A stretch of DNA of 64,000 nt from Escherichia phage vB_EcoM-UFV09: the sequence record MZ291552.2; one strand, given 5' to 3'. Under the pieces are notes generated by a model that was given only the letters and a program-made list of their open reading frames with translations, had not been told where the DNA came from and ran no database searches. This document shows, piece by piece, positions 14,816-36,796 of this stretch. The number at the start of each line of letters is the position of its first letter. Position 1 is the first letter of the stretch. Both the position numbers and the translations under genes were made by a program.

Positions 14816-15021
14816 TACAAAAAGCCTCTTTTGAATTCGACTTGTTTATCGCCATAATCATATCGAATCTCTGCGTTAAATTCAACAGAACCATCTGCGT
14901 ACATCATAAATGAATGCACAACAACTTCTGTAGACCATGGTTGCAATTCATATTTCTTCATTACATGCCGTGAAATGATAATATCTAAATCTTCATTTGG
15001 TTTAATCCAACGATTTAACAT
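14815..15021 (-). CDS. small hypothetical protein
   Basis: 68-aa ORF downstream of an early promoter (minus-strand -10 at 15049-15054, -35 at 15072-15077). Confidence 0.4.
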   Translation of the reverse strand: MLNRWIKPNEDLDIIISRHVMKKYELQPWSTEVVVHSFMMYADGSVEFNAEIRYDYGDKQVEFKRGFL

Positions 15022-15092
15022 AGTGCTCTCCTCTATAAGATAATTCTATTATACCATACTCATTTTGGAAAGTAAACCGGTAAAATGAAAAA

Positions 15093-15112
15093 AGGACTCC
15101 CGAAGGAGTCCT
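15093..15112 (-). terminator. intrinsic terminator downstream of soc
   Basis: Stem-loop aggactcc-cgaa-ggagtcct followed by a U-run on the minus-strand transcript. Confidence 0.6.
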
Positions 15113-15119
15113 TGAATTA

Positions 15120-15356
15120 TTAACCACCTATTTCTGTGGGTGTAAACATTGCAGCATTCTTAGTTTTCCAGTCAGCTGCATCAGAAACTACAGTAGAATA
15201 TGCCGCCTTTTCAGAAGGAAAGGTCTGATAATGAGAATCTGCAATACGATGCTCGTTAGAATAAATTTCAAACGGAACAGAAACTTCCATACCTTTAACT
15301 TCTTTGCCTTCACCTGTTGGATGAGTAAAGGTCTTGATGTTAACGAAACCACCCAT
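15120..15356 (-). CDS. soc: small outer capsid protein
   Basis: 78 aa; VNIKTF...HYQTFPSEKAAYSTV matches recalled T4 Soc; late promoter upstream. Confidence 0.85.
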   Translation of the reverse strand: MGGFVNIKTFTHPTGEGKEVKGMEVSVPFEIYSNEHRIADSHYQTFPSEKAAYSTVVSDAADWKTKNAAMFTPTEIGG

Positions 15357-15386
15357 AATAAACTCCTTTATTGTTTAATTACAGGT

Positions 15387-15394
15387 GTATTTAT
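15387..15394 (-). promoter_or_regulatory. late promoter TATAAATA for soc
   Basis: Exact TATAAATA on the minus strand about 30 nt upstream of the soc start. Confidence 0.6.
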
Positions 15395-15537
15395 AACTTA
15401 CAATTTAGCGGCTTTCCAGAGTTGTTCAATAATCTCTTGGTCTATTTCTTTAGTTATTTCATTACGTAATAAAGCAGTAAGGGCTTTCGCCCTTTTCTTA
15501 TTCAACTTTTTGAGTTGGCGTTTATTTAAACGGGACA

Positions 15538-16056
15538 TTAATAACCTCGGTCTTGACGTGCGAAATTTTCAGCATTTTTCAGATAATAAAGTTTAAAGAT
15601 TTCTTCTGCTGTAAGACCAAGACCCTGGAACATATTCAGAACGAAATGAAGAATATCAATCATTTCAAATTTAATTTCTAACTGGTCTTGTGGAGACAAA
15701 TCAGTAATCAGAGTTTCACGACGTTCACCATGCTGCGACTTCCAAGGTTTCCATACAGCAGATGCGTCTTTTTCACCATTACTCATACCACCAAGAGAAG
15801 TCAGAAGTTCACGGAATTCATCGTCAATATAATCTTTCTGATTACGCAACCAATCAACAACTTCACCGGCAGTAGCTAAGTCATCAGGATGACGATTATA
15901 TTCAGGTTTATCTTTAGCTAAACGAACCTGCAAAGATTTCTGCATATCAAGCATTACCTGCAGCGGGTCTTTTTCATCGCCGAGAATATCCCAATATTCA
16001 TTTTGAGCTTTATCAGCGCCTTCAATCAGTTGTGAACATTCGTTAAAGTAAGCCAT
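15538..16056 (-). CDS. 56: dCTP/dCDP pyrophosphatase (MazG-like dCTPase)
   Basis: Start trimmed to MAYFNECSQ... (~172 aa, T4 gp56-sized); the longer track ORF reads through upstream sequence. Confidence 0.8.
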   Translation of the reverse strand: MAYFNECSQLIEGADKAQNEYWDILGDEKDPLQVMLDMQKSLQVRLAKDKPEYNRHPDDLATAGEVVDWLRNQKDYIDDEFRELLTSLGGMSNGEKDASAVWKPWKSQHGERRETLITDLSPQDQLEIKFEMIDILHFVLNMFQGLGLTAEEIFKLYYLKNAENFARQDRGY

Positions 16057-16127
16057 TATTTTTCCTTTCAATTCATGGGTTAGTAGATTAATTATACAAT
16101 AAATATATAAAGCAATAAGGAGGACAT

Positions 16128-16328
16128 ATGGTACAAAAATTAATGGCACTTGTTAATGCCATCAAAGGTAATAAGAAACGTATAGCTTTTACTATTTCTG
16201 CTATGGTAGGAATTTTACTCTGGAACTTTATTTTATCACCAATTGCAATTGCGCATGGTGTTAATATTCCAGTAGTTACTCTTGATACATTCGTAGATCT
16301 AGCATTTGCTTTAGTTGGGTTGATTTAA
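16128..16328 (+). CDS. small hydrophobic protein on the plus strand
   Basis: 66 aa, two predicted TM segments; strong AAGGAGG Shine-Dalgarno 4 nt upstream of ATG; fills the 56-61 intergenic gap. Confidence 0.45.
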   Translation: MVQKLMALVNAIKGNKKRIAFTISAMVGILLWNFILSPIAIAHGVNIPVVTLDTFVDLAFALVGLI

Positions 16329-17353
16329 ATCTTAGCATATTTAGATAGCCGCATTTTAGCCATCAACCCCTGGGCAATATTATTTTTCATATATTCCATA
16401 ATTTGTTCAGGGGTTGCACCTTCCTTTCTAATCATATCATTAACATCTTTAGATTTCCAGGGAGATTTATCCCAAAACATAACCCTTTCTCCTGCATCAA
16501 CTAATTTAGTCATTCGTTTGATAGTGTCAGGGTGACGAGGTTCATTATCTAAAACCCACACTCGTCTATCTTTAAATGGAACAATTTCTAGGTCTAATTG
16601 ACCACCCGTAATAGCTATACCATTTTCAATAAAAAGTGAATCTATAGGTCCTTCTAGAACATATACATCGCCATCTTTAACTCGTTCGACTCCATAGATT
16701 TTTGTTGCCTCAGGATAAGCTTTAATGGTGATATATTTTTGAGGAGCATTTTTCTTTAATGCACGCCCTTGAAACGACTCGGCTTTTCCGTTAGCATTAT
16801 AAATTGGAATAACAAGACGAGGCTCAGGTATTTCCTTTTTATATGTTCCCGGTGCTATGCTATTAACCAATTTAGGCCATTCGGTTGTAAACCAAAGATA
16901 TTTCCATTTATCCTTTGGAATACAACGAGCTTTTACGTATTTTATAATTGGATGGTCTTCCGCCAGTTTATCTAATCTAACACATGACGGAAGAGATTTA
17001 ATTATTTTCTTCTCAGGTTGTTTAGGAAGTTCTTTAGGTTTTTCTACTGGACGACTTTTACCTTTTTCTTTTCTTATTTCAAAGATATACTCACGATATA
17101 AATCAGGTTCAAACTCCTTTAAATATATTCCGATTGGTGCGTGATAGTTACAGTTATAACAATGAATATTTCCTTCATTATTATCACCATAATACCATCC
17201 ACGAGCTTTATTCTGGTCGGTTTTTGAATCTCCACAAACGGGGCATCTAAACCGCAATTTAAAAGTTGAACTATTATTTACTTGTGTGAATTTAGGTAAA
17301 TGAGCCAATGCACGATACGCAAACTCATTATCAATCCAAGGTATTGATGACAT
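16325..17353 (-). CDS. 61: DNA primase
   Basis: 342 aa, zinc-ribbon CPVCGDS...CYNC N-terminus; matches recalled T4 gp61. Confidence 0.9.
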   Translation of the reverse strand: MSSIPWIDNEFAYRALAHLPKFTQVNNSSTFKLRFRCPVCGDSKTDQNKARGWYYGDNNEGNIHCYNCNYHAPIGIYLKEFEPDLYREYIFEIRKEKGKSRPVEKPKELPKQPEKKIIKSLPSCVRLDKLAEDHPIIKYVKARCIPKDKWKYLWFTTEWPKLVNSIAPGTYKKEIPEPRLVIPIYNANGKAESFQGRALKKNAPQKYITIKAYPEATKIYGVERVKDGDVYVLEGPIDSLFIENGIAITGGQLDLEIVPFKDRRVWVLDNEPRHPDTIKRMTKLVDAGERVMFWDKSPWKSKDVNDMIRKEGATPEQIMEYMKNNIAQGLMAKMRLSKYAKI

Positions 17354-17521
17354 TTTTACTCTTCTTTTTCTTTAGATTCCTCTTTTTTCTTTTTAGGAAT
17401 CTGTTCAGGACCTTTATTTACTACAGCACCTGATGTTGTTCCAGTAGAGATATTTTCAGGATTACCACCTGAATCTCCAGCAACCATATCTTCTTTAATA
17501 AATTCTTTATATGTTTTCATA

Positions 17522-17878
17522 TTAACCTCTATTCATAAAAGCATTAAAAATTTGGTCATCAATCGATGGAATAGCAACTTTTTCTGCATCATTTAGCAAA
17601 TCATTAATTTCATCAGATAGCATAACACATGTACCTTTATTTCCTGTAATTGTTACTGCACAATTACGAACGTTTTCTTTATTAAATTTTAGGTTAATAT
17701 TTTCGTAATGAAAATCCTTTAATGCTGAATATATTTTTAAAATAAAATTGTCTTTTACTACAATAAACCCAACCTCACTATTAAAACGTGGTTCATGGAA
17801 ACTGTAATAAACCTTTTCATCTATAAAATCGTATGAAATTTTTTCCATTTTTAAATATGAAAATTCAGAACTATACAT
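17522..17878 (-). CDS. hypothetical protein (61.1/61.2 region)
   Basis: 118 aa; C-terminal tail SIDDQIFNAFMNRG shared with the next ORF. Confidence 0.45.
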   Translation of the reverse strand: MYSSEFSYLKMEKISYDFIDEKVYYSFHEPRFNSEVGFIVVKDNFILKIYSALKDFHYENINLKFNKENVRNCAVTITGNKGTCVMLSDEINDLLNDAEKVAIPSIDDQIFNAFMNRG

Positions 17879-17879
17879 A

Positions 17880-18521
17880 TTAACCTTTATTCATAAAAGC
17901 ATTAAAAATTTGATCGTCAATAGAAACTTTTACTTTAGGATGTTCTTCAAACGGTAATTCATATCCACATATTACAATTTTGTGATCGATACCAAAATAC
18001 ACAGAAGCAATATGATTAATATTATTTTCAGTGAAATCTAAATCAACATCAATATCTTTTTGACTAACGCTCAAAGGATAATTAATACGAATAATTCGAT
18101 TATCTTTAACAAAGATTCCACCGACATACTCTGTGTTGCGTTTAAAGTTTACACGTTTCCTAAATGAAAAATATTCAGGTTCTTTATGAGCCCGACTCAT
18201 AGGACACAATGAGTAGCTAGAATAAGAGATGTCAAATCCTACACCTTCAATATGAGCCAACGTGTCATGATTAAACCAATTATAATCATACGCCAAATCC
18301 ATTATATTGTAATATGTGAAAGGCACCGGATTAACATCATATATTGTACCTTTAAAATCTGCCCAGGCAACGATTTCATTATCTTTAACAATTACAAAAA
18401 TTGTGCCAATAAGATATCCACGGTTATTTTCATCAGGCGTTATATTATAACATTGTGCATCAGGAAATTTACCGTATTTAAACGGTGGATTTTTGTGCAT
18501 ATAATAAATCATATTATTCAC
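17880..18521 (-). CDS. hypothetical protein (61.1/61.2 region)
   Basis: 213 aa; C-terminal tail SIDDQIFNAFMNKG shared with the previous ORF. Confidence 0.45.
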   Translation of the reverse strand: MNNMIYYMHKNPPFKYGKFPDAQCYNITPDENNRGYLIGTIFVIVKDNEIVAWADFKGTIYDVNPVPFTYYNIMDLAYDYNWFNHDTLAHIEGVGFDISYSSYSLCPMSRAHKEPEYFSFRKRVNFKRNTEYVGGIFVKDNRIIRINYPLSVSQKDIDVDLDFTENNINHIASVYFGIDHKIVICGYELPFEEHPKVKVSIDDQIFNAFMNKG

Positions 18522-18807
18522 CTGTGATTTCGGTTACGATATCTTTGTTATCAAAATTAGGGTCACAATACAAAACATAGTTATACTGCATCACACCACC
18601 TGATTTAAGCTGTTTTTGTACTTCAACTTTCATATTGGGACGATCACGCTCAACGATATTCATAATATCCGCTTCAATTTGAGTTTCAACTTCAGTCTGA
18701 TCTGCAGTCATAGACCATTCACACAAATCTTTATCATAACCTGCCATAGCAGGCTGAGCAGCACAAGAAGCTAAAGCAAAAATTGCAGCAAAGATAAATT
18801 TTTTCAT
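18514..18807 (-). CDS. sp: Spackle periplasmic protein (superinfection exclusion)
   Basis: 97 aa with signal peptide; size and position between 61 and 41 as in T4. Confidence 0.7.
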   Translation of the reverse strand: MKKFIFAAIFALASCAAQPAMAGYDKDLCEWSMTADQTEVETQIEADIMNIVERDRPNMKVEVQKQLKSGGVMQYNYVLYCDPNFDNKDIVTEITGE

Positions 18808-18867
18808 GATAATCTCCTCAGTAGTTTATGTTTATATAGTATCTCAATTTCCAACAAAAGTAAACAG

Positions 18868-19179
18868 CTATTTTAAAACTTCTGCATAATCACATGTTAC
18901 AAACTGTTTCTCTAACTTGACGATTTTACGAAAATACCTTTTACACTGACGAATCTGTCGCTTCGTAGGACGTACAGCAAACTTAATAAATTCCACTCGA
19001 CCAAATGGAGGACTTTCTTCTGCTGGAATATCTAGCACCAATTCCCACGTATCTGCAATAAGTGCTTTGAATTGCGTATTTTTCCTGACGTTATACGGAG
19101 TAGGTTTAAATAAAACAATATGCATATTATCCTCGGCAATCCACTTCGCACACTTTCTTGTCATCAATGAAAGCTTCAA
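18868..19179 (-). CDS. hypothetical protein (61.4 position)
   Basis: 103-aa ORF. Confidence 0.4.
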   Translation of the reverse strand: MKLSLMTRKCAKWIAEDNMHIVLFKPTPYNVRKNTQFKALIADTWELVLDIPAEESPPFGRVEFIKFAVRPTKRQIRQCKRYFRKIVKLEKQFVTCDYAEVLK

Positions 19180-19309
19180 CTAATGCTTTATTAACTTCAG
19201 CATATTGAGTAGTAGCCCATTGAACGTCATCTTTCATCATTGTGGTTTCTTTAGTAAACATGCTTTCATTCTTAAACCACCCCATAAAAACTACCTTTAC
19301 CAATTCCAT
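19127..19309 (-). CDS. dmd: Dmd antitoxin (inhibitor of RnlA/LsoA toxins)
   Basis: 60 aa, near-identical to recalled T4 Dmd (MELVKVVFMGWFKNESMFTKE...). Confidence 0.85.
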   Translation of the reverse strand: MELVKVVFMGWFKNESMFTKETTMMKDDVQWATTQYAEVNKALVEAFIDDKKVCEVDCRG

Positions 19310-19337
19310 AACAATCTCCTCATTTAACCAACAAAAC

Positions 19338-19368
19338 TACTATACCATAGTCTTGTCAGCTTGTAAAC
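19338..19368 (-). promoter_or_regulatory. T4-type early promoter upstream of gene 41
   Basis: Minus strand reads GTTTACaagctgacaagactatggTATAGT. Confidence 0.45.
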
Positions 19369-20795
19369 TAAAATTTTAATTCATTTGCCAAAGCATCTAA
19401 CTGAGCTCGAGCTGATTCGTTTCTTTGATAGCGATTCTGTTCAGCCTGAATCTGCTGTGAACCTGCTACTTCACTCACTTCGGTTGGAGTAGAATCTTGT
19501 TCAATTTCTACCCATTTTTGATTTCCTTTTTGAACACCCATCAAAAACTTATTCCACTTATTCTTATCACCATATCGTGATTTGATTTGCTTAATGAGTT
19601 GTTGTTCAGCAGCTGCTAGCTCCTCGGTTTCAATGACCGCAAGCATAAAATCAGCTGTTGCTGGAAGACCAGCAGATTCTGCAATATCGCTCATGTTAAC
19701 ATCGGAAGAGTCCCAAGCTTGTTTACCGACCTGTGCTGCAGTCCAAAGAACAGTTTCTGTTTCAACAGCCAGAGCACGTAATTCCTCTGCAATAGCTTTA
19801 ACAGTGGTGTAACTATTTTCTGAATAAACTCTAATGCGGCAAGATTTACAAATACCTAGATAGTCGACAATAATGATTGTTGGAACAAAATTCTTTTTGA
19901 GCTTCAATTCATTCAAGAGAGACCTGAATGTGTTAGCGTCTGCTCCACCAGTAGGATATTGCTTAACGATTAAACGACCGAGAGTAGATTTCTCACGCCA
20001 TTTTTCCATTTTTCCTTTATACTCGGCATAAGAAATATGTCCATCATCAATATCGTCAAGAGAAACATCGAGCATGTTAGCATCAATACGTTTAGCACAG
20101 ACTTCTTCTGCCATTTCCATGGAGATATAAAGAACGTTATGACCAAGCTGCAAATAATCTGCTGCTAATGAACAAAGTCCTAATGATTTACCAACGTTAA
20201 CGCCAGCCATTAAAACGTTCAGTGTTCCAGTCTCAGCTCCGCCTTTAGTAATTTTGTTTAGAATTCTGAGTTTAAATGGAACCTTACGAGCTTTATTCAT
20301 ATAAGATAGCCAACGCGCTTCATAGTCATCCATCCAATCATGACCAACGTAGCTATCAAATGAAATTGATAATGCTTGGCGCATGATGTCAGGAATAGCA
20401 CCTACATCTGGCATTTTCTTATTTCGTTTTTCCGGAGGAAGCTCAGCATTAGTTTGAATTTCAATTATTTTAGATGTGGCGTTAAACATCGCCCTTTGCT
20501 GAACATATTTTTCTGTTTCTTTTACTAACCAGCTATGGTCTTCCGGAGAATCGGCCAGTTTTGAAATAAGTGTTTTTACACCAGAATATTCTGTTTCAGT
20601 AAATGAACTATTTTCTAATGCAACATTTAACGCATTAATAGATGGAACGTTATGGTATTCATTAACATGAGATTTAATTAATTTGAATGTATTTTTAGCT
20701 GGACCACTTTCAAAATATTCTGAATCCATATATGGCCAAACTTTTGAAAAATAAGCTTGATCAAATATGAGATGAGAAAGAATAATTTCTACCAC
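19368..20795 (-). CDS. 41: replicative DNA helicase (DnaB-like)
   Basis: 475 aa, T4 gp41 size; Walker A GVNVGKS. Confidence 0.9.
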   Translation of the reverse strand: MVEIILSHLIFDQAYFSKVWPYMDSEYFESGPAKNTFKLIKSHVNEYHNVPSINALNVALENSSFTETEYSGVKTLISKLADSPEDHSWLVKETEKYVQQRAMFNATSKIIEIQTNAELPPEKRNKKMPDVGAIPDIMRQALSISFDSYVGHDWMDDYEARWLSYMNKARKVPFKLRILNKITKGGAETGTLNVLMAGVNVGKSLGLCSLAADYLQLGHNVLYISMEMAEEVCAKRIDANMLDVSLDDIDDGHISYAEYKGKMEKWREKSTLGRLIVKQYPTGGADANTFRSLLNELKLKKNFVPTIIIVDYLGICKSCRIRVYSENSYTTVKAIAEELRALAVETETVLWTAAQVGKQAWDSSDVNMSDIAESAGLPATADFMLAVIETEELAAAEQQLIKQIKSRYGDKNKWNKFLMGVQKGNQKWVEIEQDSTPTEVSEVAGSQQIQAEQNRYQRNESARAQLDALANELKF

Positions 20796-20804
20796 ACTTA
20801 CTCC

Positions 20805-21167
20805 TTAAAAGAATTTAAATTTTTTCTTTGACCTTTTATTAAATGCATCTTGTAGTTGCATTGTAATACATTTTTCTACATGAGGAGCTAACTCAGCTTT
20901 TCTTTCTTGGTCAAGAACAGCAAAGTCCATTACGACTTTTCCATCAACCCAATCTAATTTTGTCACATACACAATGTGTGTAGAACCGTCTTCTAGTTTA
21001 ATGACAATCTCCTGGATAACATTTTCCATGGCAGATTTAATTATCTTAAGAGATTCATTAAAAAGACGTTCTTTTCTTTCTTCTTCCCCCTCCGAAGAGG
21101 GGGATTCATCGATAATTTTTAGATCTAAATCTAAATCATCTTTATTCATTAAATTCTTCCATATCAC
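20805..21167 (-). CDS. 40: gp40-like protein
   Basis: 120-aa ORF between 41 and uvsX, as in T4. Confidence 0.5.
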   Translation of the reverse strand: MIWKNLMNKDDLDLDLKIIDESPSSEGEEERKERLFNESLKIIKSAMENVIQEIVIKLEDGSTHIVYVTKLDWVDGKVVMDFAVLDQERKAELAPHVEKCITMQLQDAFNKRSKKKFKFF

Positions 21168-22323
21168 TTAACTGATCTAGGTCAGTTTCTAAATCAGCTG
21201 CTGATTTACTTTTACTTTCTGGAGATTTAAATTTTTCAACCTTTGAGTTAATCAATTCATCAACTTCAGCTTCAACAATTTCATTACTATCAATAGCACC
21301 TAACTGATAAGCACGTTTAATAGCATCTCGGAACGGTTGATGCTTAAATAAAGGACCCCAGAATGTAGTGCAATTGGTATCTTTTGCACGCCAAGATTTT
21401 TCTTCGCGAATCATCTCGCCGGTTTCTTCGTCAAGAAATTCACGAGCATACCAGCCATTTTTAGGTTTTACCACAAATCCTAATTCTAAAGCCATATCTA
21501 ACAATCCAGAATAAGGATCGATGCCACCGTCAAATTTAACATCAATAAAGAATTTACTTTTTTCTTTGACGGTACGAGATTTTTCTACATTTAGAACAAA
21601 TTGATACCCCTGAAGATCAGAACCATCTTTAATCTGGCGCTTACCGATAATGAATACGGTATCAGCCGAATACATTACACCTGTACCACCTGTCATCACG
21701 GTTTTACTAAACATTTCAATTGTTTCAATTGTGTGGTTAACCGCAACACATGGAATATTTTTAATACTAAAATAAGGAGTAACAATACGGAATAATGACT
21801 TCAGTGATTTAGCACGAGTCATATCTGCCACAGATTTTTCATTCAAGGCATCTTCCGTTTCTTTCTTAGAAGCCATATTACCGATTGAGTCGATGAATAC
21901 AATAACTTTTTCACCACGCTCAATAGCTTCAAGCTGATTCACCATATCAATTTTCAGCTGTTCAACTGACTGAATTGGTGTATGAATTACTCGTTCCGGA
22001 TCAACTCCCATGGATCGCAAATAAGCTGGAGTAATACCAAATTCGCTATCATAGAATAGACACACCGCGTCAGGATATTTGTTCAAATACGCCGCAACCA
22101 TAGTCAAAGACATATTTGATTTAAAGTGTTTAGAAGGACCTGCAAAAATGGTTAAACCAGACTGCATACCACCATCAATCGCACCTGAAATAGCGATATT
22201 AAGCATTGGGATTTTTGTACGGATTACATCCTTTTCATTAAAGAATTTAGATGTAGTCAGTTCAGCAGTCATTTTAGAAGTGGAAGCTTTAATCAAACGG
22301 GATTTTAAATCTGCAATAGACAT
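21142..22323 (-). CDS. uvsX: UvsX recombinase (RecA-like)
   Basis: 393 aa, highly similar to recalled T4 UvsX throughout. Confidence 0.95.
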   Translation of the reverse strand: MSIADLKSRLIKASTSKMTAELTTSKFFNEKDVIRTKIPMLNIAISGAIDGGMQSGLTIFAGPSKHFKSNMSLTMVAAYLNKYPDAVCLFYDSEFGITPAYLRSMGVDPERVIHTPIQSVEQLKIDMVNQLEAIERGEKVIVFIDSIGNMASKKETEDALNEKSVADMTRAKSLKSLFRIVTPYFSIKNIPCVAVNHTIETIEMFSKTVMTGGTGVMYSADTVFIIGKRQIKDGSDLQGYQFVLNVEKSRTVKEKSKFFIDVKFDGGIDPYSGLLDMALELGFVVKPKNGWYAREFLDEETGEMIREEKSWRAKDTNCTTFWGPLFKHQPFRDAIKRAYQLGAIDSNEIVEAEVDELINSKVEKFKSPESKSKSAADLETDLDQLSDMEEFNE

Positions 22324-22400
22324 TCATTTTTTCCATAGGCATCATTATATTTTCCTCACTGGTTAAAGATAAAGTAATTATAACACAATAAATTTAGGCA

Positions 22401-23249
22401 TTAATCAACTGCTATTGGATGAATAGCATTAAACTTATGAAACGCTTCTGATTTTTCTTTGCGCGAAACACACATGCGAAGAACCTTTAATGGCTCGTCT
22501 TCTTCACCCAACGATTTTCTCTTTTCAATATTAGAAGTTTTCCAACGAGCTTGCTCTGGAAACTCTCTATTGATTTGCTCAAGAGCTCTATTATGTTTTG
22601 AATTACTACGAATTGAACTACATCCGCCTGGAGCTTGTGCTTTTCCAGATACAACCAGATATTTGAACAAGGCCAAATGCGGATAACCTTGATTAATTAA
22701 ATTGAGAAATGCATACATATCTTCGCATAAATCAATTTTTCCATACCCAATTTGTTCTGTTGTAAGTTTCCCGAGGTCATACCAAGTATTCGTGAATCCA
22801 TATGAATTTTCACGATAATTACCCCAAGATGAAGTAATTTTAAAAATTGGTAAACGAGCATGGCCATGATAATACCCGCAATCCATGGCATCTTCAACGT
22901 ATTGAATCAATTCATAGAACTGTTCACGAGTTAACTGATTAATTTTATCTACGCAGCGACGGTCATCTTTCTTTCGCATTGAACTCATACGAATAGTAGT
23001 ATCATCGTCAATCATCCAAATTCGTTGACCTGCATACATATCAGTAATTGCTTTACGAGTACCAGCAATTCCGTTAACATCATCAGGAATAGTTATAATT
23101 TTAGCTCTAGACCCGTAAGCGTCATAATAAGCTTTTTCTTCGTGTTCACGTACTACAATATGTGGTTCATAATCAGTCGGAAACATATCAAGGGCAGAAA
23201 CTGCCCCTACGCGTTGATAGCTTGGAATTACGAATTGAATCATTTCCAC
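22401..23249 (-). CDS. putative glycosyltransferase at the beta-gt locus, not T4 beta-gt-like
   Basis: 282 aa between uvsX and 42; acidic IDDDTTI motif resembling a GT-A DxD; no resemblance to recalled T4 beta-glucosyltransferase. Confidence 0.45.
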   Translation of the reverse strand: MEMIQFVIPSYQRVGAVSALDMFPTDYEPHIVVREHEEKAYYDAYGSRAKIITIPDDVNGIAGTRKAITDMYAGQRIWMIDDDTTIRMSSMRKKDDRRCVDKINQLTREQFYELIQYVEDAMDCGYYHGHARLPIFKITSSWGNYRENSYGFTNTWYDLGKLTTEQIGYGKIDLCEDMYAFLNLINQGYPHLALFKYLVVSGKAQAPGGCSSIRSNSKHNRALEQINREFPEQARWKTSNIEKRKSLGEEDEPLKVLRMCVSRKEKSEAFHKFNAIHPIAVD

Positions 23250-23980
23250 TCACCGTTATAATCTTTTTTCGCAATATGAGTTTCGCCAGTTTTCCACCAA
23301 TGGTCAACCAAATAAAAATGACGGGAATACACATGAAGGCTCCCGACATTCCATATAATGGAACCTGCTTTATACTGACGGGTTGAATCACCTGCATTCA
23401 AATCAGATACTAATTTATCTAGTACGTATTTTTGCCATGCATAATCATTACGGAATCCGAAGACCACGTCATTTGAACGCATGCTTACTACTGCATTGAC
23501 TTTCTTATCACGAATCAGGTACTGTACTGTATTCGTACACATGAAATCTGACATACCATCTTTATTGTAGTCAAACTGCATGGATGGACGAGTATAAATC
23601 ATGATACCACGCCGAGAATCAGGATTTTGACCAAGTTCAGCTAAACACATATCATACTGAGCATAGTTATCTTCTGACCAAATAGCCCAACCATAATTCG
23701 AGTTAATTTCGCCTTTAGAAGATGCTACCTGTTGCCAAATCTTCGGTGTTTCACCTGGAATATCTTTAACAAACAGGCTTTGAGACTTATACCATTCAAG
23801 TTCACGCTGAATGTATTCATCATTAAGAGCGCCAAAAATAAAAGGTTCATCTGCTACAAATGATGCACCAATAATTTCAATAGTTTTAACACCAGTTTTA
23901 TCAATTACGAAATCTTTTTCCTTTAATGCAAGACCCAAATCAAGACGGATTTCTTCAACTGTCATATAATCGTTAATCAT
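23240..23980 (-). CDS. 42: dCMP hydroxymethylase
   Basis: 246 aa, near-identical to recalled T4 gp42. Confidence 0.95.
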   Translation of the reverse strand: MINDYMTVEEIRLDLGLALKEKDFVIDKTGVKTIEIIGASFVADEPFIFGALNDEYIQRELEWYKSQSLFVKDIPGETPKIWQQVASSKGEINSNYGWAIWSEDNYAQYDMCLAELGQNPDSRRGIMIYTRPSMQFDYNKDGMSDFMCTNTVQYLIRDKKVNAVVSMRSNDVVFGFRNDYAWQKYVLDKLVSDLNAGDSTRQYKAGSIIWNVGSLHVYSRHFYLVDHWWKTGETHIAKKDYNGEWK

Positions 23981-24133
23981 TTAAACCTCAATTGATGCAT
24001 TCATATTTAATTTGTAACAGTAATAAACCCCAACCTATAATAAGTGTCGGAATCATACAAGGAACCGTTACGCTATAGTATATACTTATTATAATCATCA
24101 AGATTAAAAGCAATACTGCTAAAATTTTGCTTT

Positions 24134-24385
24134 TCATTCCTTCTCTCTGATGATAATTACTTGATTTGGTTGTACAGATTTTTTAGTTTCACCTGCAATT
24201 GACCAAATAAATGTAATAAACCAACCAATGATTGACCAGTTAAACAGTAAAGATGTGAAAAAGATTCCTACTGTCGATTTTGACCCACGCATCAAGGCGA
24301 TGAACCATGGAAGCATGTATATAATAATAGCCAACACGCCTGAAACTAAAACCATAAAAATTGAACCTGCTACTAAAGTTTCCAT
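24134..24385 (-). CDS. imm: Imm superinfection immunity membrane protein
   Basis: 83 aa, two TM segments; size and position match T4 Imm. Confidence 0.8.
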   Translation of the reverse strand: METLVAGSIFMVLVSGVLAIIIYMLPWFIALMRGSKSTVGIFFTSLLFNWSIIGWFITFIWSIAGETKKSVQPNQVIIIREKE

Positions 24386-24392
24386 ATTTTCC

Positions 24393-24773
24393 TCACTTAG
24401 TCAAATTTTTTACGCATGAATTATAAGAATTCACTACATACTCCATCGGAGCATTTTTACCTGTACGCCATTGGTAATTATTAGCCCAATTAGCCCAAAG
24501 CTCAGCGCAGTAGTTTTCAATTTTTTCTTCGCGTGTAATTACATCTGAATTACGATATGCTTGAGCAGATTCATCTGGGCGAATAGCTTCGTCAAAATTC
24601 GCCTGCATCTGTTCTACTGTCTGTTTTGGAGCTTCTTTATAACACTTAACATTAGGATTATAAAATTTGCTTGAACAGTTTACAATTTTTCCTACATCAG
24701 ATTGATTTACTACCGGTCCTTGAGCTACACAGCCAGTAAGACCTAATGCAATAACCAAAATAGCGATTTTCAT
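24393..24773 (-). CDS. lipoprotein-like hypothetical protein
   Basis: 126 aa; signal peptide with lipobox LTGC. Confidence 0.5.
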   Translation of the reverse strand: MKIAILVIALGLTGCVAQGPVVNQSDVGKIVNCSSKFYNPNVKCYKEAPKQTVEQMQANFDEAIRPDESAQAYRNSDVITREEKIENYCAELWANWANNYQWRTGKNAPMEYVVNSYNSCVKNLTK

Positions 24774-24783
24774 AATAATTTCC

Positions 24784-25020
24784 TCAAATACAAGTAGTAA
24801 TTACTCCAGTAGTGCTTACACAGGTATTACCTAATTGAACACCCAACGTTCCATTAGTATTCATATGAAGATTATCATCAATTTTTGTTGATACTTTACC
24901 ATTCATGTGAATAATAGTATTAGATTCAATCACATTCTGAGTGTCATTTTCAATATCAATAAATGGAACAGTTGCTAATGCAACTAAACACACTGCTAAA
25001 CAACCATAAACAATTTTCAT
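24784..25020 (-). CDS. small secreted hypothetical protein
   Basis: Trimmed to MKIVYGCLAVCLVALA... (78 aa, signal peptide) behind GGAGAATAAA-ATG; the longer track ORF reads through the promoter repeat. Confidence 0.45.
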   Translation of the reverse strand: MKIVYGCLAVCLVALATVPFIDIENDTQNVIESNTIIHMNGKVSTKIDDNLHMNTNGTLGVQLGNTCVSTTGVITTCI

Positions 25021-25174
25021 TTTATTCTCCAAATCCGTATCAGTTGATAGTTGTATAGTACCATGGAAGAACGGGGATGTAAATAGTTTTGTGAAAAAAT
25101 TTTTAATGAATTTACAGGACCTAGAATCATCTATTTTTCCTAAGTATAGATTTATATTACTTGTATGAAAAAGG

Positions 25175-25193
25175 GACCCGGAGGTCCCTAGAT
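25175..25193 (-). terminator. stem-loop terminator downstream of gene 43
   Basis: gggacc-cgga-ggtccc hairpin preceded by an A-run on the plus strand. Confidence 0.5.
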
Positions 25194-25201
25194 TTATTCT
25201 A

Positions 25202-27898
25202 TCAGCCAAACAGGAAGTCTAACGAAGCTTTTTCCTCATAGTCCATACCTGCCGATTCACACATGCCCGCAAGCGGTTTAACAAACGATTTTTGGAACAA
25301 AGTTGAGTAGTCAATCCAAGATAGTACGTCAGAACGAATTTCTTTTGGAAGTTCCGTACCCGATGGCCAAGCAATGCACTTGTCACCAAATGGATTTCCC
25401 TCACGTAACGGAAGAACCATTACCTTATTTCCATCCAAAATTGGAGCTACACCTAAACCGCTAACAGCTCGACGATAAGTTAGCACCCCACGAATATGGA
25501 ACGGGCATTTAAACCCTGGCCAACCTTTATCGTCATATTTCGCTATATCGTTCGCGGTTTTTACTTCAGCAATAACTTTATAGTCAAGTTGACGGTATTC
25601 TTTCTCAAAGTTCTTATAGTATTCTTGGACAGACTCTTCGCCTTCCTGAAGAATACGACGAATACTTTCTTCGAGAGCTTCTTGCACTGCTTTTGGTGTT
25701 GAACTCTGCTGAGTTTCCATACCCATGATTTTTAGATGTGGTTCAGCGAATCGCTTATCTTCCATATCATAAACGTTCAGAGCATAACGCTTTTTCGCTT
25801 TCCAAAATCCACCAACGCCCTTTGAACCAAGTGGAGGGCAAGAAATAGCTTCACGGTCCATATGCATCAGATGCTCGCGGTTATTCATATAATCACATAA
25901 CTCACGATATGCAACATCAATCATAGGTTCCATCTTTTTCTTACCGAACTGATTCATGAATTCAACTAAATCGTTCTGCTCTTTGAATCGGTCAAGACCA
26001 ACTTTTTCAATAACTTTATCTACACAAACATATACCGAATCAGTATCACCTGCTGCAATGAAATCTTCGCCATTAGTTCCGCACACTTTATTCAGATACT
26101 CATTAATTTTACGAGCAATCCACTGAATACCAACTTGGCCGAAAATTGTGATAGCAGTAGCATTTCGCAAATCATAGTAACGGAAATGAATATTACCAAG
26201 AGCACCATAAAGACTGTTAATAAGAATTTTACGGTTCAGCTGATTTGTGTTAGCAAGTGTAGCTGCTTTTTCACATTCTTCAATCAAACTATTGAGAACA
26301 GATTCAGTGTAATTCGATAATTCATTTAAGAAATCATCGCTGAACTTAACATATCGTTCAACTTCTGGTTTAGTTGAACAAGACCCTGCACCTTTCATAA
26401 TAATCTTTTTAATAGCTTCGGCATTCATTTCTTCAGCGAACATTTTCTTTTTCCAATCTTTACGCTGGAAAAATACTTTAGCGATTTCCTTTGGAATGAT
26501 ACCTTCTTGATGCTTATCATACATCCATCCATTCGGAGAACAAGAATATTCATCACTTGGCTTAGGAGCTGTTCCTGCGATATATTCATGAATTGGATGA
26601 ACTTTAAACTGACCACGAATAGTTTCAGGACTAATGTTAACCTGGCGAATAATGCTCGGATACAGAGACGTCAAGTCAAAACTCATAATATATCGACGAG
26701 CAATTGGTTTAGGTTCAAACACAAATGCACCCGGAAAACTCTGTTTAACGTGTGAACCTTGTTGAGGAATAACCTTATGTTCACCTTTCAATGAGTTAAA
26801 AATAATAGCATCCCAAGTTTTAATAGGACTCATTACACCAGAAAAAGGCATTTTAGCGTAATAAGACATACTTAAAACTAGATCAATAAACCCACGAATT
26901 TTATCAATTGCTTGAACTGATTCTACGTCAATGATGTTATAACTAATGTATCGTTGATGATTAGTCTCACGAAGTTTATTAATAGGACCGTCGTATGGTA
27001 ATTTACCTTTTTTGGTTTCATGCTGAGCAACTGATTCCAAAGAGAATGACGGCAAATTAGTAAATGCGAATTTCTTATACAAATCTAAATAATCAAGAAT
27101 AGATACGCCATCAATAGAATAAATTTCTTTGCTACCGTACATATTTTGGATAAGTTTAGATTTTACTCGACCGATTGGAGAGAAGCGTTTCATACTGCGT
27201 TCACCAAGAACCATTTTAACGCGATTCATGATATACGGAACGTCAAATCCCTCAATATTCCAACCAGTAAAAATAGCAGGTCGTTTCTGTTCCCAGAGAT
27301 TGATATATTCCATGAGCATATCACGCTCATTATCGAATGGCATATAAATTACTCGGTCAAGAATTTCTTGAGGAACTTCATCACCACCTTCACAGTCAAG
27401 CTTAGCAGCTAACTTTGCATCCCATTTTGATACTGAACCGTACATTGAATTCAAAAGGTCGAAAACATAAAAACGATCATCAATTGAATCATAATGAGTG
27501 ATAGCATCAATTTCATATTCTGCTTTCATTGGGTCAGGAAATTTATCACCAGTAACCTCAATGTCACAGTTAGCTACACGAACAAATTTTCGGTCATAAA
27601 CAATTTCTGAACCGTATGTATCACTGATATAAGCGAGTTTAAAATCGTTCATACCGAGAGCTTCGAGACCGATGTCTTCCATTCGCTTCATCCAATCTCG
27701 AGCATCTTTCATTGATGGAAATTTTTGAGGAGCGCAATTTTTACCATAGATGTCTTTGTATTTTGACTCTTCCTTACAATGCCTAAACATAGTTGGAAGA
27801 TATTCTACTTCACGAGTACGTTCCTTTCCGTTTTCATCAATATAACGTTCAACAATGTTATTTCCGACTGTTTCAATAGAGATATAAAATTCTTTCAT
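25202..27898 (-). CDS. 43: DNA polymerase (family B)
   Basis: 898 aa, T4 gp43 size, with 3'-5' exonuclease and polymerase motifs. Confidence 0.95.
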   Translation of the reverse strand: MKEFYISIETVGNNIVERYIDENGKERTREVEYLPTMFRHCKEESKYKDIYGKNCAPQKFPSMKDARDWMKRMEDIGLEALGMNDFKLAYISDTYGSEIVYDRKFVRVANCDIEVTGDKFPDPMKAEYEIDAITHYDSIDDRFYVFDLLNSMYGSVSKWDAKLAAKLDCEGGDEVPQEILDRVIYMPFDNERDMLMEYINLWEQKRPAIFTGWNIEGFDVPYIMNRVKMVLGERSMKRFSPIGRVKSKLIQNMYGSKEIYSIDGVSILDYLDLYKKFAFTNLPSFSLESVAQHETKKGKLPYDGPINKLRETNHQRYISYNIIDVESVQAIDKIRGFIDLVLSMSYYAKMPFSGVMSPIKTWDAIIFNSLKGEHKVIPQQGSHVKQSFPGAFVFEPKPIARRYIMSFDLTSLYPSIIRQVNISPETIRGQFKVHPIHEYIAGTAPKPSDEYSCSPNGWMYDKHQEGIIPKEIAKVFFQRKDWKKKMFAEEMNAEAIKKIIMKGAGSCSTKPEVERYVKFSDDFLNELSNYTESVLNSLIEECEKAATLANTNQLNRKILINSLYGALGNIHFRYYDLRNATAITIFGQVGIQWIARKINEYLNKVCGTNGEDFIAAGDTDSVYVCVDKVIEKVGLDRFKEQNDLVEFMNQFGKKKMEPMIDVAYRELCDYMNNREHLMHMDREAISCPPLGSKGVGGFWKAKKRYALNVYDMEDKRFAEPHLKIMGMETQQSSTPKAVQEALEESIRRILQEGEESVQEYYKNFEKEYRQLDYKVIAEVKTANDIAKYDDKGWPGFKCPFHIRGVLTYRRAVSGLGVAPILDGNKVMVLPLREGNPFGDKCIAWPSGTELPKEIRSDVLSWIDYSTLFQKSFVKPLAGMCESAGMDYEEKASLDFLFG

Positions 27899-27954
27899 AG
27901 ATATTCCTTAGTTTATAGCCCGAGTTATTAGGCTCTTGATATATTATACTCCAA

Positions 27955-27972
27955 ATAAGGGGCCGAAGCCCC
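27955..27972 (-). terminator. stem-loop terminator or RNA-stabilising hairpin
   Basis: ggggc-cgaa-gcccc hairpin just downstream of the 78-aa ORF. Confidence 0.5.
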
Positions 27973-27979
27973 TTTGCTT

Positions 27980-28216
27980 TTAAATTTCTATTGTATGACG
28001 CGATATAACGGACTTGCCATCTTTATTTGTGGTTTTGATAATCGCATGAAATACGCGTTGGCGTGGGTAAACTAATCGTTGGAATTCTTTTTGGAATTCT
28101 ATTTGTTTATCTTCTGGGAGGTCAAAAACCAGTTGGGTAGAAGACAGACCATATGTTTGTTTTAGATTTTCGAATATTAGAAAAGCTTCGGTAAACTGAA
28201 TCTTTGATTGTGTCAT
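27980..28216 (-). CDS. small hypothetical protein between regA and gene 43
   Basis: Start trimmed to MTQSKIQF... (78 aa); ATG is coupled to the regA stop. Confidence 0.45.
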   Translation of the reverse strand: MTQSKIQFTEAFLIFENLKQTYGLSSTQLVFDLPEDKQIEFQKEFQRLVYPRQRVFHAIIKTTNKDGKSVISRHTIEI

Positions 28217-28226
28217 ATAATTTACC

Positions 28227-28595
28227 TTAATTACCAATCGTATATTTAGGAACGAGTTTCCATTCATGTTTTTGTTTAAAAGAAATAACTCGGAAGTTAT
28301 TAGTTAAATCTTTCATAAAAGTTCTTTGACCAGGAACGATTTCAATCAGTCCCCAATCTTCTAACAGCCATGCAATCGAATCACGACGAACTTCATCTTC
28401 TTCTGTCATTTCAACTTGACGGCCATCCATACGAAGCATTTCTTTAAAATGAACGATATAGTATAGTCCTTTTTTCTGGAGAATGTGGCAGGACTGATAC
28501 AGAACTTTATCTTTATTATTAGCAATTCCCATACGAGTCAAAGTTTCTTTTACTTTCAGAAAATCTTCAGGTTTTTTAAGAGTAATTTCAATCAT
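28227..28595 (-). CDS. regA: RegA translational repressor
   Basis: 122 aa; matches recalled T4 RegA. Confidence 0.9.
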   Translation of the reverse strand: MIEITLKKPEDFLKVKETLTRMGIANNKDKVLYQSCHILQKKGLYYIVHFKEMLRMDGRQVEMTEEDEVRRDSIAWLLEDWGLIEIVPGQRTFMKDLTNNFRVISFKQKHEWKLVPKYTIGN

Positions 28596-28596
28596 T

Positions 28597-29160
28597 TTAC
28601 CATTCCAATGCTAGTTTTTTGAGTTGTTTCTGTTCTTTTACATTCTTAGTCACTTCTTTTAAAAAATCATCCGTGACTAAACCTTTTAGTTCTTTTAATA
28701 CTAAAGGAAGTTTTCCATTTTTAGTAAGAATTGATTTATAGTTAATTGCATCATTTGTATTAACTTGATACCGCTTAGCAAGTAACTTAATAATCAATAC
28801 TTCAGTAGAATCTTCGACCAGTTTTGCCCATTTACCATATCTTTTACCCCGAGGAACAGCAGCCATCAGGTAATTAAAATGGGCTTCATCGCTTAAACCT
28901 GATCCAATTAAATTCATAGCATATACAGCTGGCATGCATTCAGGAAATTGTGATAATGCATTCTCAACCATGTATTTTGAATAATCTTTTTGAGCAATAG
29001 AGCATTTAGTTTTATTATTAATAGCTCCAATTATTTCAAAAAACTCATTTTCAGCTTTTTCTTTAAAAGAATCAGCAGCAGATTGGACAGCTGTCCAATC
29101 TTTTGAATACCAAGCAACTTGATGCTCGTTTAATTGAATATCATCTTCAAATAAGCTCAT
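28597..29160 (-). CDS. 62: clamp loader small subunit
   Basis: Trimmed to MSLFEDDIQ... (187 aa, T4 gp62 size). Confidence 0.85.
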
Positions 29161-29161
29161 A

Positions 29162-30121
29162 TCACTTCCACTGCATTTCACATGCTAACTGAATGAAAAG
29201 ATAAACTAGATGCAATTCAGTATTAGCTGCAATACCATGATACTGATTATTTTCGCCGACAATTTCGTACATACGAATAATACTCTGTGGAGTTACACGT
29301 GAATAGATTTCTTCGGCAAGTTTACCCACGAACCACGAATAATCGGCTGCATATTTTGGCGCTAAAGCTCTGAGTTGTTTAACATCTTTATTTTTGAGAG
29401 ACTCAAGAACATCATCAATAGCACCACGATCGTTAGTAACCAGTGATAAAATACCAGCATCCAAAACACCTTTAGATGAATAACTATCGAGCTCGCCAAT
29501 AGTTTTACGAAAATCAGGAAAATTCTTTTTAACCAAAGCTGCTACAACTTTCATATCAGCTATAGCAATTCCTTCATGCTTACAGATTTCAGTCAACCGA
29601 CGAATCATCTGCTTCATCATTTCAATTTTATCTTCATCGGTCGGTTGACCGAATGTGATAACTCGGCAGCGTGACTGAAGCGGTTTAATAATACCATCAA
29701 TATTGTTAGCAGTAATAATAATACTACAGTTTGAGCTGTAAGCTTCCATAAAGGAACGAAGATGTCGCTGAGACTCTGCTAATCCTGAACGGTCAAATTC
29801 ATCAATAACGATTACTTTTTGACGACCGTCAAATGAAGCTGCGCTAGCAAAATTAGTCAAAGGACCACGAACGAAATCAATTTTACAATCTGATCCATTC
29901 ACAAACATCATATCAGCATTTACATCATGGCACAATGCTTTTGCTACAGTTGTTTTACCTGTTCCTGGAGAAGGAGAATGAAGAATAATATGTGGAATCT
30001 TACCTTTACTTGTAATAGATTTAAAGGTTTCTTTATCAAAGGCGGGAAGAATACATTCATCGATAGTAGATGGACGATATTTCTGTTCAAGAATGTGTTC
30101 TTTTTCATTTACGGTAATCAT
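29162..30121 (-). CDS. 44: clamp loader large subunit (AAA+)
   Basis: Trimmed to MITVNEKEH... (319 aa); Walker A PGTGKTT. Confidence 0.9.
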
Positions 30122-30153
30122 AATTTCCTCATTCAAGTTTTAGTGTAAATTAT

Positions 30154-30167
30154 AAAGGGCCGAAGCC
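30154..30167 (-). terminator. stem-loop downstream of gene 45
   Basis: agggc-cgaa-gccct hairpin. Confidence 0.45.
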
Positions 30168-30172
30168 CTCTA

Positions 30173-30859
30173 TTAAAAATCGTGGGTAGAATCAGCTTCA
30201 AGAGCTACTACATAATTCGCGTGTTCACCTTCAAATTTAGCAGCACCTTGTTTACCTTTTGCCCAGAGCAGAAGTTTATAATTTCCTGGTTGCATTTTCA
30301 TATTTGCCATATTGATAATGAAATTAAATGTATTTTCACCATCATAATCACCAAGAGTCAAAGAATATTTAACACGGGTCAGAGCAGAATCTTCTACTTT
30401 ATTAAAACCGTTAATTACGATTTTACCTTCTTTTACCGTGATAGCAATTGTATCAATCTGCAGACCACGAGATACACGCAACAGTTGTTGAAGGTCTTCA
30501 GCTTTAATTTCAGTAACAACAGATGCTACCGGGAATGGAATTGGTTTATTAGGAGCAACTACTGTACTCGGATCGGCTGCTGGCCAAAAAATTGTTGAAC
30601 GGGCATCAGCAATTTTAATATTTCCATCTTCTGACTGGGAAATTTCTGCATCATCATTAACTAGAGACAGAATACCGAGAAAACCGTTCAAATCGTAAAT
30701 TGCTACATCAAAATCAATAACGTCAGAAATATTTGCTTCCGCATAAGTTGTACCATTAACTGCGCGAGTCATAATAAATTGACCGGATTTAAGCATAATA
30801 CCAGAGTTAATAGTAGCGAAATTTTTAAGCAGAGCAGTAGTATCTTTAGACAGTTTCAT
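30173..30859 (-). CDS. 45: sliding clamp
   Basis: 228 aa, T4 gp45 size and position. Confidence 0.9.
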   Translation of the reverse strand: MKLSKDTTALLKNFATINSGIMLKSGQFIMTRAVNGTTYAEANISDVIDFDVAIYDLNGFLGILSLVNDDAEISQSEDGNIKIADARSTIFWPAADPSTVVAPNKPIPFPVASVVTEIKAEDLQQLLRVSRGLQIDTIAITVKEGKIVINGFNKVEDSALTRVKYSLTLGDYDGENTFNFIINMANMKMQPGNYKLLLWAKGKQGAAKFEGEHANYVVALEADSTHDF

Positions 30860-30914
30860 GTAATTTCCTTCAATTCAAATGAGATTTAATTTTATAACTA
30901 ATTTAATAAAGCAA

Positions 30915-31304
30915 TTAACGATTAAAATCAGCCGCAATTGTTTCCACAACAATTTGAGCAGCAACAATTAGACGTTCATCTGCATTACCACAATAATCAT
31001 CTTCAAGGCGTTCACCGCATGAAGTCATAATAAATTTAGCACCGGCGTTTAGGGATTCTGTAGTATGTTTGCGCATTAGTTCAATCCATTTATTACTTAC
31101 TTCACGATCGATAGCTTCATAATACGCATGACGAGCAGGTGCAGATTTAATTTTGTTCTGAATAACTTCCATTGCGTTATCAGAAAGAGACAAAACCCAT
31201 GCTCGACGAATTTTATTTTGGTTTTGTGGATTTGATTCAGAACGCACGTGTTTTGGCTGAATATCTTTTACGTCAACAGTATAATTCACAGTAATTTTAG
31301 TCAT
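30915..31304 (-). CDS. rpbA: RNA polymerase-binding protein RpbA
   Basis: 129 aa, downstream of gene 45 as in T4. Confidence 0.6.
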
Positions 31305-31313
31305 AATACACCT

Positions 31314-31505: not shown

Positions 31506-31515
31506 AGTTCCTCCG

Positions 31516-31523
31516 TATAAATA
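31516..31523 (+). promoter_or_regulatory. late promoter TATAAATA on the plus strand
   Basis: Exact TATAAATA about 34 nt upstream of the plus-strand HNH gene start. Confidence 0.55.
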
Positions 31524-31556
31524 TGTTTATCACTCGCTGTATCAAAAGGATATGTT

Positions 31557-35593: not shown

Positions 35594-36796
35594 TTATTTT
35601 GTAATAATGTCAAACTGCTCTTTAAAGCAGAAGCTTGAATCTTGGTGCTGATACAAAAATTCATAAGCTTTTTCGCGTTCACGGTCATAAAGAGTTCGGT
35701 CAGATGACAGTTCTTTAATACGTTCAAATGTTGATTCCATGTCATTTTCATCAAACCAAATGATACCGCTATCATGCGAGGTCAAAGGAGTATTATCAAC
35801 ACGGAATTTTAAATTTTCGCCTGTAGATTTCCAAAATACCGGAATTGTTCCACATGCACCAAGCTCGAGATGAGTATATTCTAAAGAACGTTGTAGATAT
35901 TTTTTGTCCAACTTACTCAGCTGATAACCAAATCCGGATTTACTCATGCGTTCAAGCATTTCGCTATTTACATAACGGTCAAGAATTTGCGTTGGCAAAT
36001 TAGGAGCAATTTTAATTTGGTCTACTTGATGAAGACGATAATACTCGTATGGAATTCCTTTTTCTTTAATAGGAATGAACGCTGGAGAACGTTCCAGACC
36101 TTCCATAATAGTACTTAGTCCTGCAGGTTTAAGATGTTTTTCATGAAAATCAAACATCTGATAAAAACCTTTCCACGTAGTAGTACGACCAATCCAACGA
36201 TTGATATTCATGTTAATTTCAGAAACATCTTTCCAGTAGGTTGATCGAACCTTTGCAATATCCATCGGAGGCTGAAAGTTATATACTGTCGGTGCTTCTT
36301 CAATATCATCAAACAGAGAAACTGTTTCAGGATACCATTCTTTCATCAGAACTTTATTAAAATCGCCATTATCAGAATGGCTAAAAATAACATCAGCTCG
36401 ACGAACAGTTTCTTCTAATCCCAAATTTCGACGCAAAGAAAGAGAAGAATGGTCATGTTGATAAACTACAACACGAACAGAAGGTTTAATGTTATCAATA
36501 ATTTTTTTATAGTTATTAATAGTGTCTTCTTCAACTGAAGTAGCAGGAACTGAATTGATAATTAGAATATCACAATCATTTACCAGCTTAAGTGTTTTAT
36601 CGTATTCTTTTGCCAATAAAACCGGAATTGAAAATGATTTATAATCATGCGCGCAATTACGAGTAAATGATTTATCTTTAGCATAAACCAAAGTTACTTC
36701 ATGACCATTTTTAATAAACCAATCACGTTGCTCAAGAGAAAATTTAGTTACACCACAACCTTCAAGACCTCGAGCCATAAAAATACATACTTTCAT
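35594..36796 (-). CDS. agt: DNA alpha-glucosyltransferase
   Basis: 400 aa; N-terminus M.ICIFMARGLEGCGVTKFS matches recalled T4 alpha-gt. Confidence 0.9.
   Translation of the reverse strand: MKVCIFMARGLEGCGVTKFSLEQRDWFIKNGHEVTLVYAKDKSFTRNCAHDYKSFSIPVLLAKEYDKTLKLVNDCDILIINSVPATSVEEDTINNYKKIIDNIKPSVRVVVYQHDHSSLSLRRNLGLEETVRRADVIFSHSDNGDFNKVLMKEWYPETVSLFDDIEEAPTVYNFQPPMDIAKVRSTYWKDVSEINMNINRWIGRTTTWKGFYQMFDFHEKHLKPAGLSTIMEGLERSPAFIPIKEKGIPYEYYRLHQVDQIKIAPNLPTQILDRYVNSEMLERMSKSGFGYQLSKLDKKYLQRSLEYTHLELGACGTIPVFWKSTGENLKFRVDNTPLTSHDSGIIWFDENDMESTFERIKELSSDRTLYDREREKAYEFLYQHQDSSFCFKEQFDIITK

Follow-up and report, generated by a model that had tools for sequence, protein, structure and literature searches.

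Background

Which glucosyltransferase occupies the slot beside gene 42 in this phage, and which DNA modification would follow from it, is the question raised by a minus-strand open reading frame at 22401..23249 of the window (the whole 64-kb stretch of DNA analyzed here), which runs for 282 codons from a GTG and lies between uvsX (21142..22323) and gene 42 (23240..23980). An earlier note on this DNA, made from the sequence alone, had proposed for it a second-sugar transferase of T2/T6 type, to be checked by alignment to the T2/T6 enzyme and by fold prediction. In a T-even phage such a gene decides for gentiobiosyl-hmC instead of beta-glucosyl-hmC, and so shapes sensitivity to modification-dependent defences. 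The explanation that best accounts for the whole, with a probability of roughly 0.93, is that the gene is ba-gt, which together with gene 42 and an alpha-glucosyltransferase (alpha-gt) would yield gentiobiosyl-hmC and hence the DNA type predicted for T6 and TB37. Observed in its favor were the identity of the gene, its fold class and synteny, the conservation of its motifs, the presence of alpha-gt as partner and the lack of the T4-type beta-glucosyltransferase (beta-gt); activity, genetics and the DNA composition of near-identical phages are taken from the literature.

Gene structure and identity

The earlier note's reading frame of 282 amino acids is present in the slot between uvsX and gene 42, with a product of 280 amino acids when read from ATG 23243. 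Direct reading of the sequence places this ATG (23243-23241) two codons downstream of GTG 23249, and it is most likely the true start of ba-gt, the GTG being a mechanical ORF start only, because it forms an ATGA overlap with gene 42 (23240..23243, minus strand), in which two bases belong both to the ba-gt ATG and to the TGA that ends gene 42 (23242-23240), and because relatives are consistently annotated with 280 amino acids. On the same two grounds the 282-residue GTG product was rejected as a real protein. The coding sequence at 22401..23243 on the minus strand thus comprises 280 codons and a TAA stop (22401-22403), as delimited by the ORF, its start context, the matches to PHROG 842 and PF20691, and the CDS of the source record. 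A product of this length is annotated in the source record and in those of T2, TB37, Geo, EH2 and Solly, and the latter five also have the identical 4-base overlap between ba-gt and gene 42 in their annotation. Four genomes, Escherichia phages vB_EcoM-UFV05, UFV06, UFV10 and UFV11 (Tequatrovirus, from Brazilian wastewater), are 100% identical to positions 15000-35000 of the window, and in the UFV11 record the 280-residue CDS is labelled "glucosyl transferase". G+C content and skew across the locus are unremarkable.

Sequence comparisons support the identification of the gene as a T2/T6-type beta-glucosyl-HMC-alpha-glucosyltransferase (ba-gt, TAGT). The protein is matched over its whole length by PHROG 842, which bears this very name (E = 2e-89), and by PF20691 (TET-associated glycosyltransferase, TAGT) with 38.8 bits against a gathering cut-off of 27.5, residues 5-209 aligning with profile positions 2-205 of 205. 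Alignment to the reference enzymes gave 276 identical residues out of 280 for T2, and 274 plus one stop codon for T6 (MH550421); the proposal of a second-sugar transferase is borne out by these matches together with the GT-A-type fold described below. TB37, EH2 and Solly share one protein that is identical to ours at 278 of 280 positions, the only differences being K92R and I101V, and the Geo group differs by 7 substitutions. Both K92 and I101 are private to the window protein, every compared relative having R92 and V101; the two changes are conservative and fall in or beside a variable, poorly conserved segment (residues 87-100) that is modelled with low confidence. The allele in the window is intact.

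The note had also seen no similarity to T4 beta-gt, and rightly so: the best BLASTP value is E = 3.4, and T4 beta-gt belongs to PF09198, which has no match to the window protein. Hidden similarity between the two was considered and rejected on this BLASTP result and on their separate Pfam families. As to the T4 arrangement that the note used for orientation, beta-gt does lie between uvsX and gene 42 in T4, but it shares that interval with segA, located between uvsX and beta-gt; tblastn of the 64-kb window found no segA. Nor was a beta-gt found by tblastn anywhere in the 64-kb window, and the four UFV genomes are not among the beta-gt matches listed, which cover 31 of the 34 Escherichia records within the 126 records with a beta-gt homologue; one of the unlisted Escherichia records is a partial T4 entry. 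By Pfam and tblastn searches of the 64-kb window, alpha-gt is thus present and beta-gt absent, the combination expected of the partners of ba-gt.

Family motifs and predicted fold

While a word-indexed homologue search returned 11 proteins only, the family became visible in an exhaustive profile search, which at E <= 0.001 yielded 2146 representatives (50% identity level). Conservation was assessed in an alignment of 144 of these, whose identity to the window protein is 17-64%. It showed that: 1) The acidic DDD-containing motif to which the earlier note had pointed (QRIWMIDDDTTIR) is present and family-conserved beyond chance. Its three aspartates, D79-D80-D81 (23001..23009, minus strand), are of DXD type, close the strand RIWMID and are conserved in 142, 144 and 136 of the 144 representatives respectively; the DDD is therefore a true family signature of TAGT. 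By analogy it is the probable site for a divalent metal and the UDP pyrophosphate. 2) V5-R11 (VIPSYQR; 23211..23231, minus strand) corresponds to the GT2-like first-strand motif (compare IPTYNR), with I6 in 137, P7 in 130 and S or T at position 8 in 142 of 144 representatives and R11 in 143 of 143 aligned residues, and is a candidate part of the nucleotide-sugar pocket. 3) In E174-D175, the "ED" of LCEDMY (22719..22724, minus strand), the aspartate is universal (144/144) and the glutamate frequent (113/144). The ED/TED motifs of GT2 enzymes are the basis for the analogy by which D175 may be the catalytic base of an inverting GT-A enzyme. 4) The glycine-rich loop G206-G207-C208-S209-S210-I211-R212 (22608..22628, minus strand) keeps G206 in 143, G207 in 144, C208 in 124 and R212 in 141 of 144 representatives, and might act as a flexible lid or substrate-binding loop. 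5) G186 is retained in 143 of 144. Only D80, D175 and G207 are invariant across the 144 representatives, and all of the family-conserved residues (R11, D79-D81, D175, G206-G207 and R212) occur in the window protein.

The fold prediction yielded a glycosyltransferase of GT-A type, both in the structure model and in the fold search made with it. The model consists of a single Rossmann-like alpha/beta/alpha domain of the nucleotide-diphospho-sugar transferase type; it is of moderate quality, with a mean pLDDT of 71 and with the G206-R212 loop in a low-confidence segment (194-210). One of its strands (2-6) carries the first-strand motif, and another (74-79) runs into the DDD, which in the model follows the fourth strand, the place of the DXD motif in GT-A enzymes. 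The top Foldseek match is 9jma/9jn3, which is also the sole PDB sequence touched by the family profile; that profile match, which sets IPSYQR on IPTYNR and LDDD on LDDD, is weak (E = 0.23) and corroborative only. Neither the protein nor the family profile had a significant match among PDB sequences in sequence and profile searches. The fold matches listed are of GT-A type, and T4 beta-gt is not among them. Because no solved structure is detectable by sequence, the residue roles suggested here are assigned by analogy.

Neighboring genes and expression signals

Gene 42 (23240..23980, minus strand), the immediate upstream neighbor of ba-gt, encodes the dCMP hydroxymethylase (PF00303, E = 1e-15) and bears the annotation gp42 dCMP hydroxymethylase in a number of records, among them those of PP01 and T6. 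The order uvsX, ba-gt, gene 42 is the same in the window, T2, TB37, Geo and T6. The ATGA overlap, together with promoter signal at chance level, suggests that ba-gt is co-transcribed and translationally coupled with gene 42: between 22200 and 24200, 12 sites resemble sigma-70 promoters where 9.2 +/- 3.2 would be expected, and 1 site resembles a terminator where 1.0 would be expected.

A G+C-rich, 9-bp hairpin (23189-23209, minus strand; GGGGCAG TTTC TGCCC) lies inside ba-gt, about 35 bases from its start. It is at chance level in the terminator scan, and its conservation in T2, T6 and TB37 may simply reflect coding constraint. From the end of ba-gt to the beginning of uvsX there is a spacer of 77 bases (22324-22400); it contains TGCCTAAA, followed about 12 bases on by TATAAT, an arrangement like that of a T4 middle promoter (MotA box), which might serve uvsX.

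The second glucosyltransferase gene, alpha-gt (a-gt; 35594..36796, minus strand), which the note had called T4-like, is a true alpha-gt (PF11440, E = 4e-237) and about 91% identical to that of T4T. It is 100% identical to the alpha-gt of TB37 and is found at 99% identity or more in 399 phage records. The window thus has the majority allele, and T4, T6 and Geo a distinct one; since the latter is only about 91% identical to the former, Tequatrovirus has two alpha-gt allele classes as judged from their sequences. Elsewhere in the window, at about 31557-32273 on the plus strand, the source record annotates a homing endonuclease, which is opposite in strand to all of its neighbors, lies just upstream of the gene 46 homologue and is a probable mobile insertion. 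Compared with T4 and Geo over positions 15000-24000, the window has neither the dam methyltransferase nor the adjacent Geo_034 gene. T4 has dam, as do the phages of the Geo/EL/BGP group, in which gentiobiosylation is intermediate.

Proposed pathway and expected DNA modification

In the pathway that we propose, gene 42 would supply 5-hydroxymethyl-dCMP, to be built into phage DNA, alpha-gt would attach an alpha-linked glucose to hmC, and the resulting alpha-glucosyl-hmC would serve as the acceptor of ba-gt, which would transfer a second glucose from UDP-glucose onto the first in beta-1,6 linkage to give gentiobiosyl-hmC. The enzyme would be a GT2-like, GT-A-fold glucosyltransferase with an inverting mechanism, because a beta-1,6 linkage is formed from UDP-glucose, an alpha-linked donor. 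We infer the residue roles, as we do the coupling and the exact ratios in this phage: D79-D81 may hold the metal and pyrophosphate and D175 may act as general base on the acceptor 6-OH; contacts with UDP or the DNA backbone might be made by R11, R63, R212 and the G206-G207 loop, and the conserved low-confidence loops could gain order on substrate binding. Activity of ba-gt is known from classical biochemistry cited in PMC13216743, and deletion of the gene in T6 leaves only alpha-glucosyl-hmC, so that it is needed for the second, beta-linked glucose (PMC11078745).

By HPLC/MS, the DNA of TB37, EH2 and Solly contains alpha-gentiobiosyl-mdC (about 2/3) and 5-hmdC (about 1/3), with little alpha-glucosyl-mdC and without a beta-glucosyl form (PMC13390438). 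Given the absence of beta-gt, an alpha-gt 100% identical to that of TB37 and a ba-gt identical at 278 of 280 positions to that of TB37, EH2 and Solly, the virion DNA of the UFV phage is predicted to be of the same T6/TB37 type, with about 2/3 gentiobiosyl-hmC, about 1/3 hmC, traces of alpha-glucosyl-hmC and no beta-glucosyl-hmC. A confident prediction of this kind should be useful in annotating the phage for host range or phage therapy.

The alternative that survives best concedes the enzyme and changes only its output: were it weakly active, as in T2, the DNA would be mostly mono-alpha-glucosylated with a few per cent gentiobiosyl-hmC. Gentiobiosyl levels do vary despite nearly the same enzyme, from 5% in T2 through about 40% in the Geo group to about 70% in T6 and TB37. 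As the T2 protein is 276/280 identical to ours and yet accompanies about 5% gentiobiosyl-hmC, and as the Geo group with its 7 substitutions is intermediate, the ratio is unreadable from family membership alone. We nevertheless consider weak activity improbable here, because the window protein has R11 and P251, as do TB37, EH2 and Solly with their roughly 2/3 gentiobiosyl-hmC, rather than the R11H and P251S of T2, because its alpha-gt is identical to that of TB37, and because the private K92 and I101 are conservative and situated in or beside a poorly conserved segment.

Much less probable still is a TAGT of other specificity, which would transfer another sugar, form another linkage or use beta-glucosyl-hmC as acceptor. 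With 2146 representatives the family is both large and varied, two kinds of TAGT may exist (PMC13216743), and in CC31, S16-like and other phages the partner of homologues with about 65% identity is beta-gt, not alpha-gt; but the window protein is 98-99% identical to enzymes of phages with alpha-gentiobiosyl-hmC, and its sole partner is alpha-gt. Other specificity may rather apply to the more distant homologues that stand beside beta-gt. Two such neighborhoods were noted, in vB_EcoM-G3F8 (MZ234036.1 28441-30362), where a 96% TAGT adjoins a 55% beta-gt homologue, and in CC31 (GU323318.1 22120-24026), where the corresponding values are 66% and 49%; these would imply either addition of a second sugar onto beta-glucosyl-hmC or another specificity. 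Finally, a sugar-1-phosphate nucleotidylyltransferase that makes the activated sugar, instead of a glycosyltransferase, can be set aside as extremely improbable, given the GT2-type motifs (IPSYQR, DDD, ED), a Pfam family that is a glycosyltransferase family, and the T6 deletion, which removes the second glucose only, while the first still needs UDP-glucose. The gentiobiosyl-forming ba-gt acting after alpha-gt is therefore the reading that we retain.

Reference alleles of T2 and T6

All eight T2 records have an identical ba-gt with R11H (CGY to CAT) and P251S (T2 PV958097.1 3007-3849; the codon corresponds to 23211-23213 of the window). R11 and P251 are found in teqskov and 303Ecol101PP, the nearest relatives of T2 at this gene. 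Residues 11 and 251 are the only ones at which the T2 protein departs from the protein shared by TB37, EH2 and Solly, and Arg occupies position 11 in all 143 of the 143 family members aligned there. As T2 departs from the high-gentiobiosyl protein at these two positions only and R11 is family-invariant, we tentatively offer, as a possibility that we hold to be rather doubtful, that the window has the fully active wild-type ba-gt, that the classical laboratory references are not wild-type, and that the value of about 5% in T2, as against about 70%, results from R11H, possibly together with P251S. The literature consulted makes no mention of R11H as an explanation of the low gentiobiosylation of T2. 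If true, the ba-gt genotype would predict the ratio of mono- to di-glucosyl forms and hence sensitivity to glycosylases such as Brig1, although it bears on the relatives more than on the window itself.

The T6 records are also altered. In MH550421.1 (22137-22979) codon 10 is changed from CAG to the amber codon TAG, and a truncated product of 261 amino acids is annotated; in NC_054907.1/AP018814.1 (301-1140; YP_010067197.1, 279 amino acids) one GAT of GATGATGAT is missing, which turns DDD into DD. The latter protein is the TAGT query sequence in PMC13216743. These lesions could be mutations of the stocks or sequencing errors.

Prevalence and comparison with known systems

By tblastn, ba-gt is found in 689 phage records as against 126 with a homologue of T4-type beta-gt. 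Identity is at least 90% in 472 of the 689, mostly coliphages and Shigella phages, and 60-80% in about 200, which come from phages of Klebsiella, Enterobacter and Salmonella; the name beta-glucosyl-HMC-alpha-glucosyltransferase is used in many of the records. Likewise, 12 of the 14 sequenced T4-like "RB" phages have both alpha-gt and ba-gt (PMC6024577). "Non-T4-like", the earlier note's term for the gene, is thus correct, but its framing as unusual does not hold: alpha-gt with ba-gt is the majority state in Tequatrovirus and T4 is the exception, a status already published (PMC6024577, PMC13216743). Nothing here is new in this respect, as the gene, its function, fold class and prevalence have all been published and the gene is already annotated in GenBank. 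Gentiobiosyl DNA resists Brig1 in vitro, but the GmrSD and BrxU families still cut it (PMC11078745, PMC13216743, PMC13390438).

The closest known system is the ba-gt ("ggt") of T2 and T6 (UniProt Q06717 and Q06718, as cited in PMC6024577, which gives 280 amino acids for T2 Q06717), with which the window gene shares the length, the slot between gene 42 and uvsX, the ATGA overlap, the alpha-gt partner and the family-conserved residues. It differs from T2 in keeping the invariant R11 and P251, and from the two T6 reference records in having neither the amber at codon 10 nor the one-Asp deletion in the DDD. Relative to PF20691 as a whole, it has the residues that never vary (D80, D175 and G207) and those that hardly vary (R11, D79, D81, G186, G206 and R212). 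It belongs to the T-even clade of TAGT, which works on hmC that arises at the nucleotide level and has first been glucosylated by a dedicated alpha-gt, and it is without the association with TET/JBP-type DNA hydroxylases from which the family takes its name. The GT2-like GT-A enzymes (AvpGT 9jn3/9jma, SpsA 1h7q, TarS 5tze and BcsA 4p00) are only 9-15% identical to it in sequence, the GT2 class of ba-gt lying below detection by sequence (best E = 0.23), and their acceptors are lipid, polysaccharide or teichoic acid, in contrast to the sugar on duplex DNA expected for ba-gt. T4 beta-gt has in common with ba-gt an equivalent slot beside gene 42, UDP-glucose as donor, a beta linkage and hmC-containing phage DNA as substrate; however, it is a GT-B enzyme of another Pfam family (PF09198; PDB 1JG7 as cited in PMC13216743) with no sequence similarity to the GT-A-type ba-gt, and it glucosylates hmC itself, whereas ba-gt glucosylates the glucose already on hmC.
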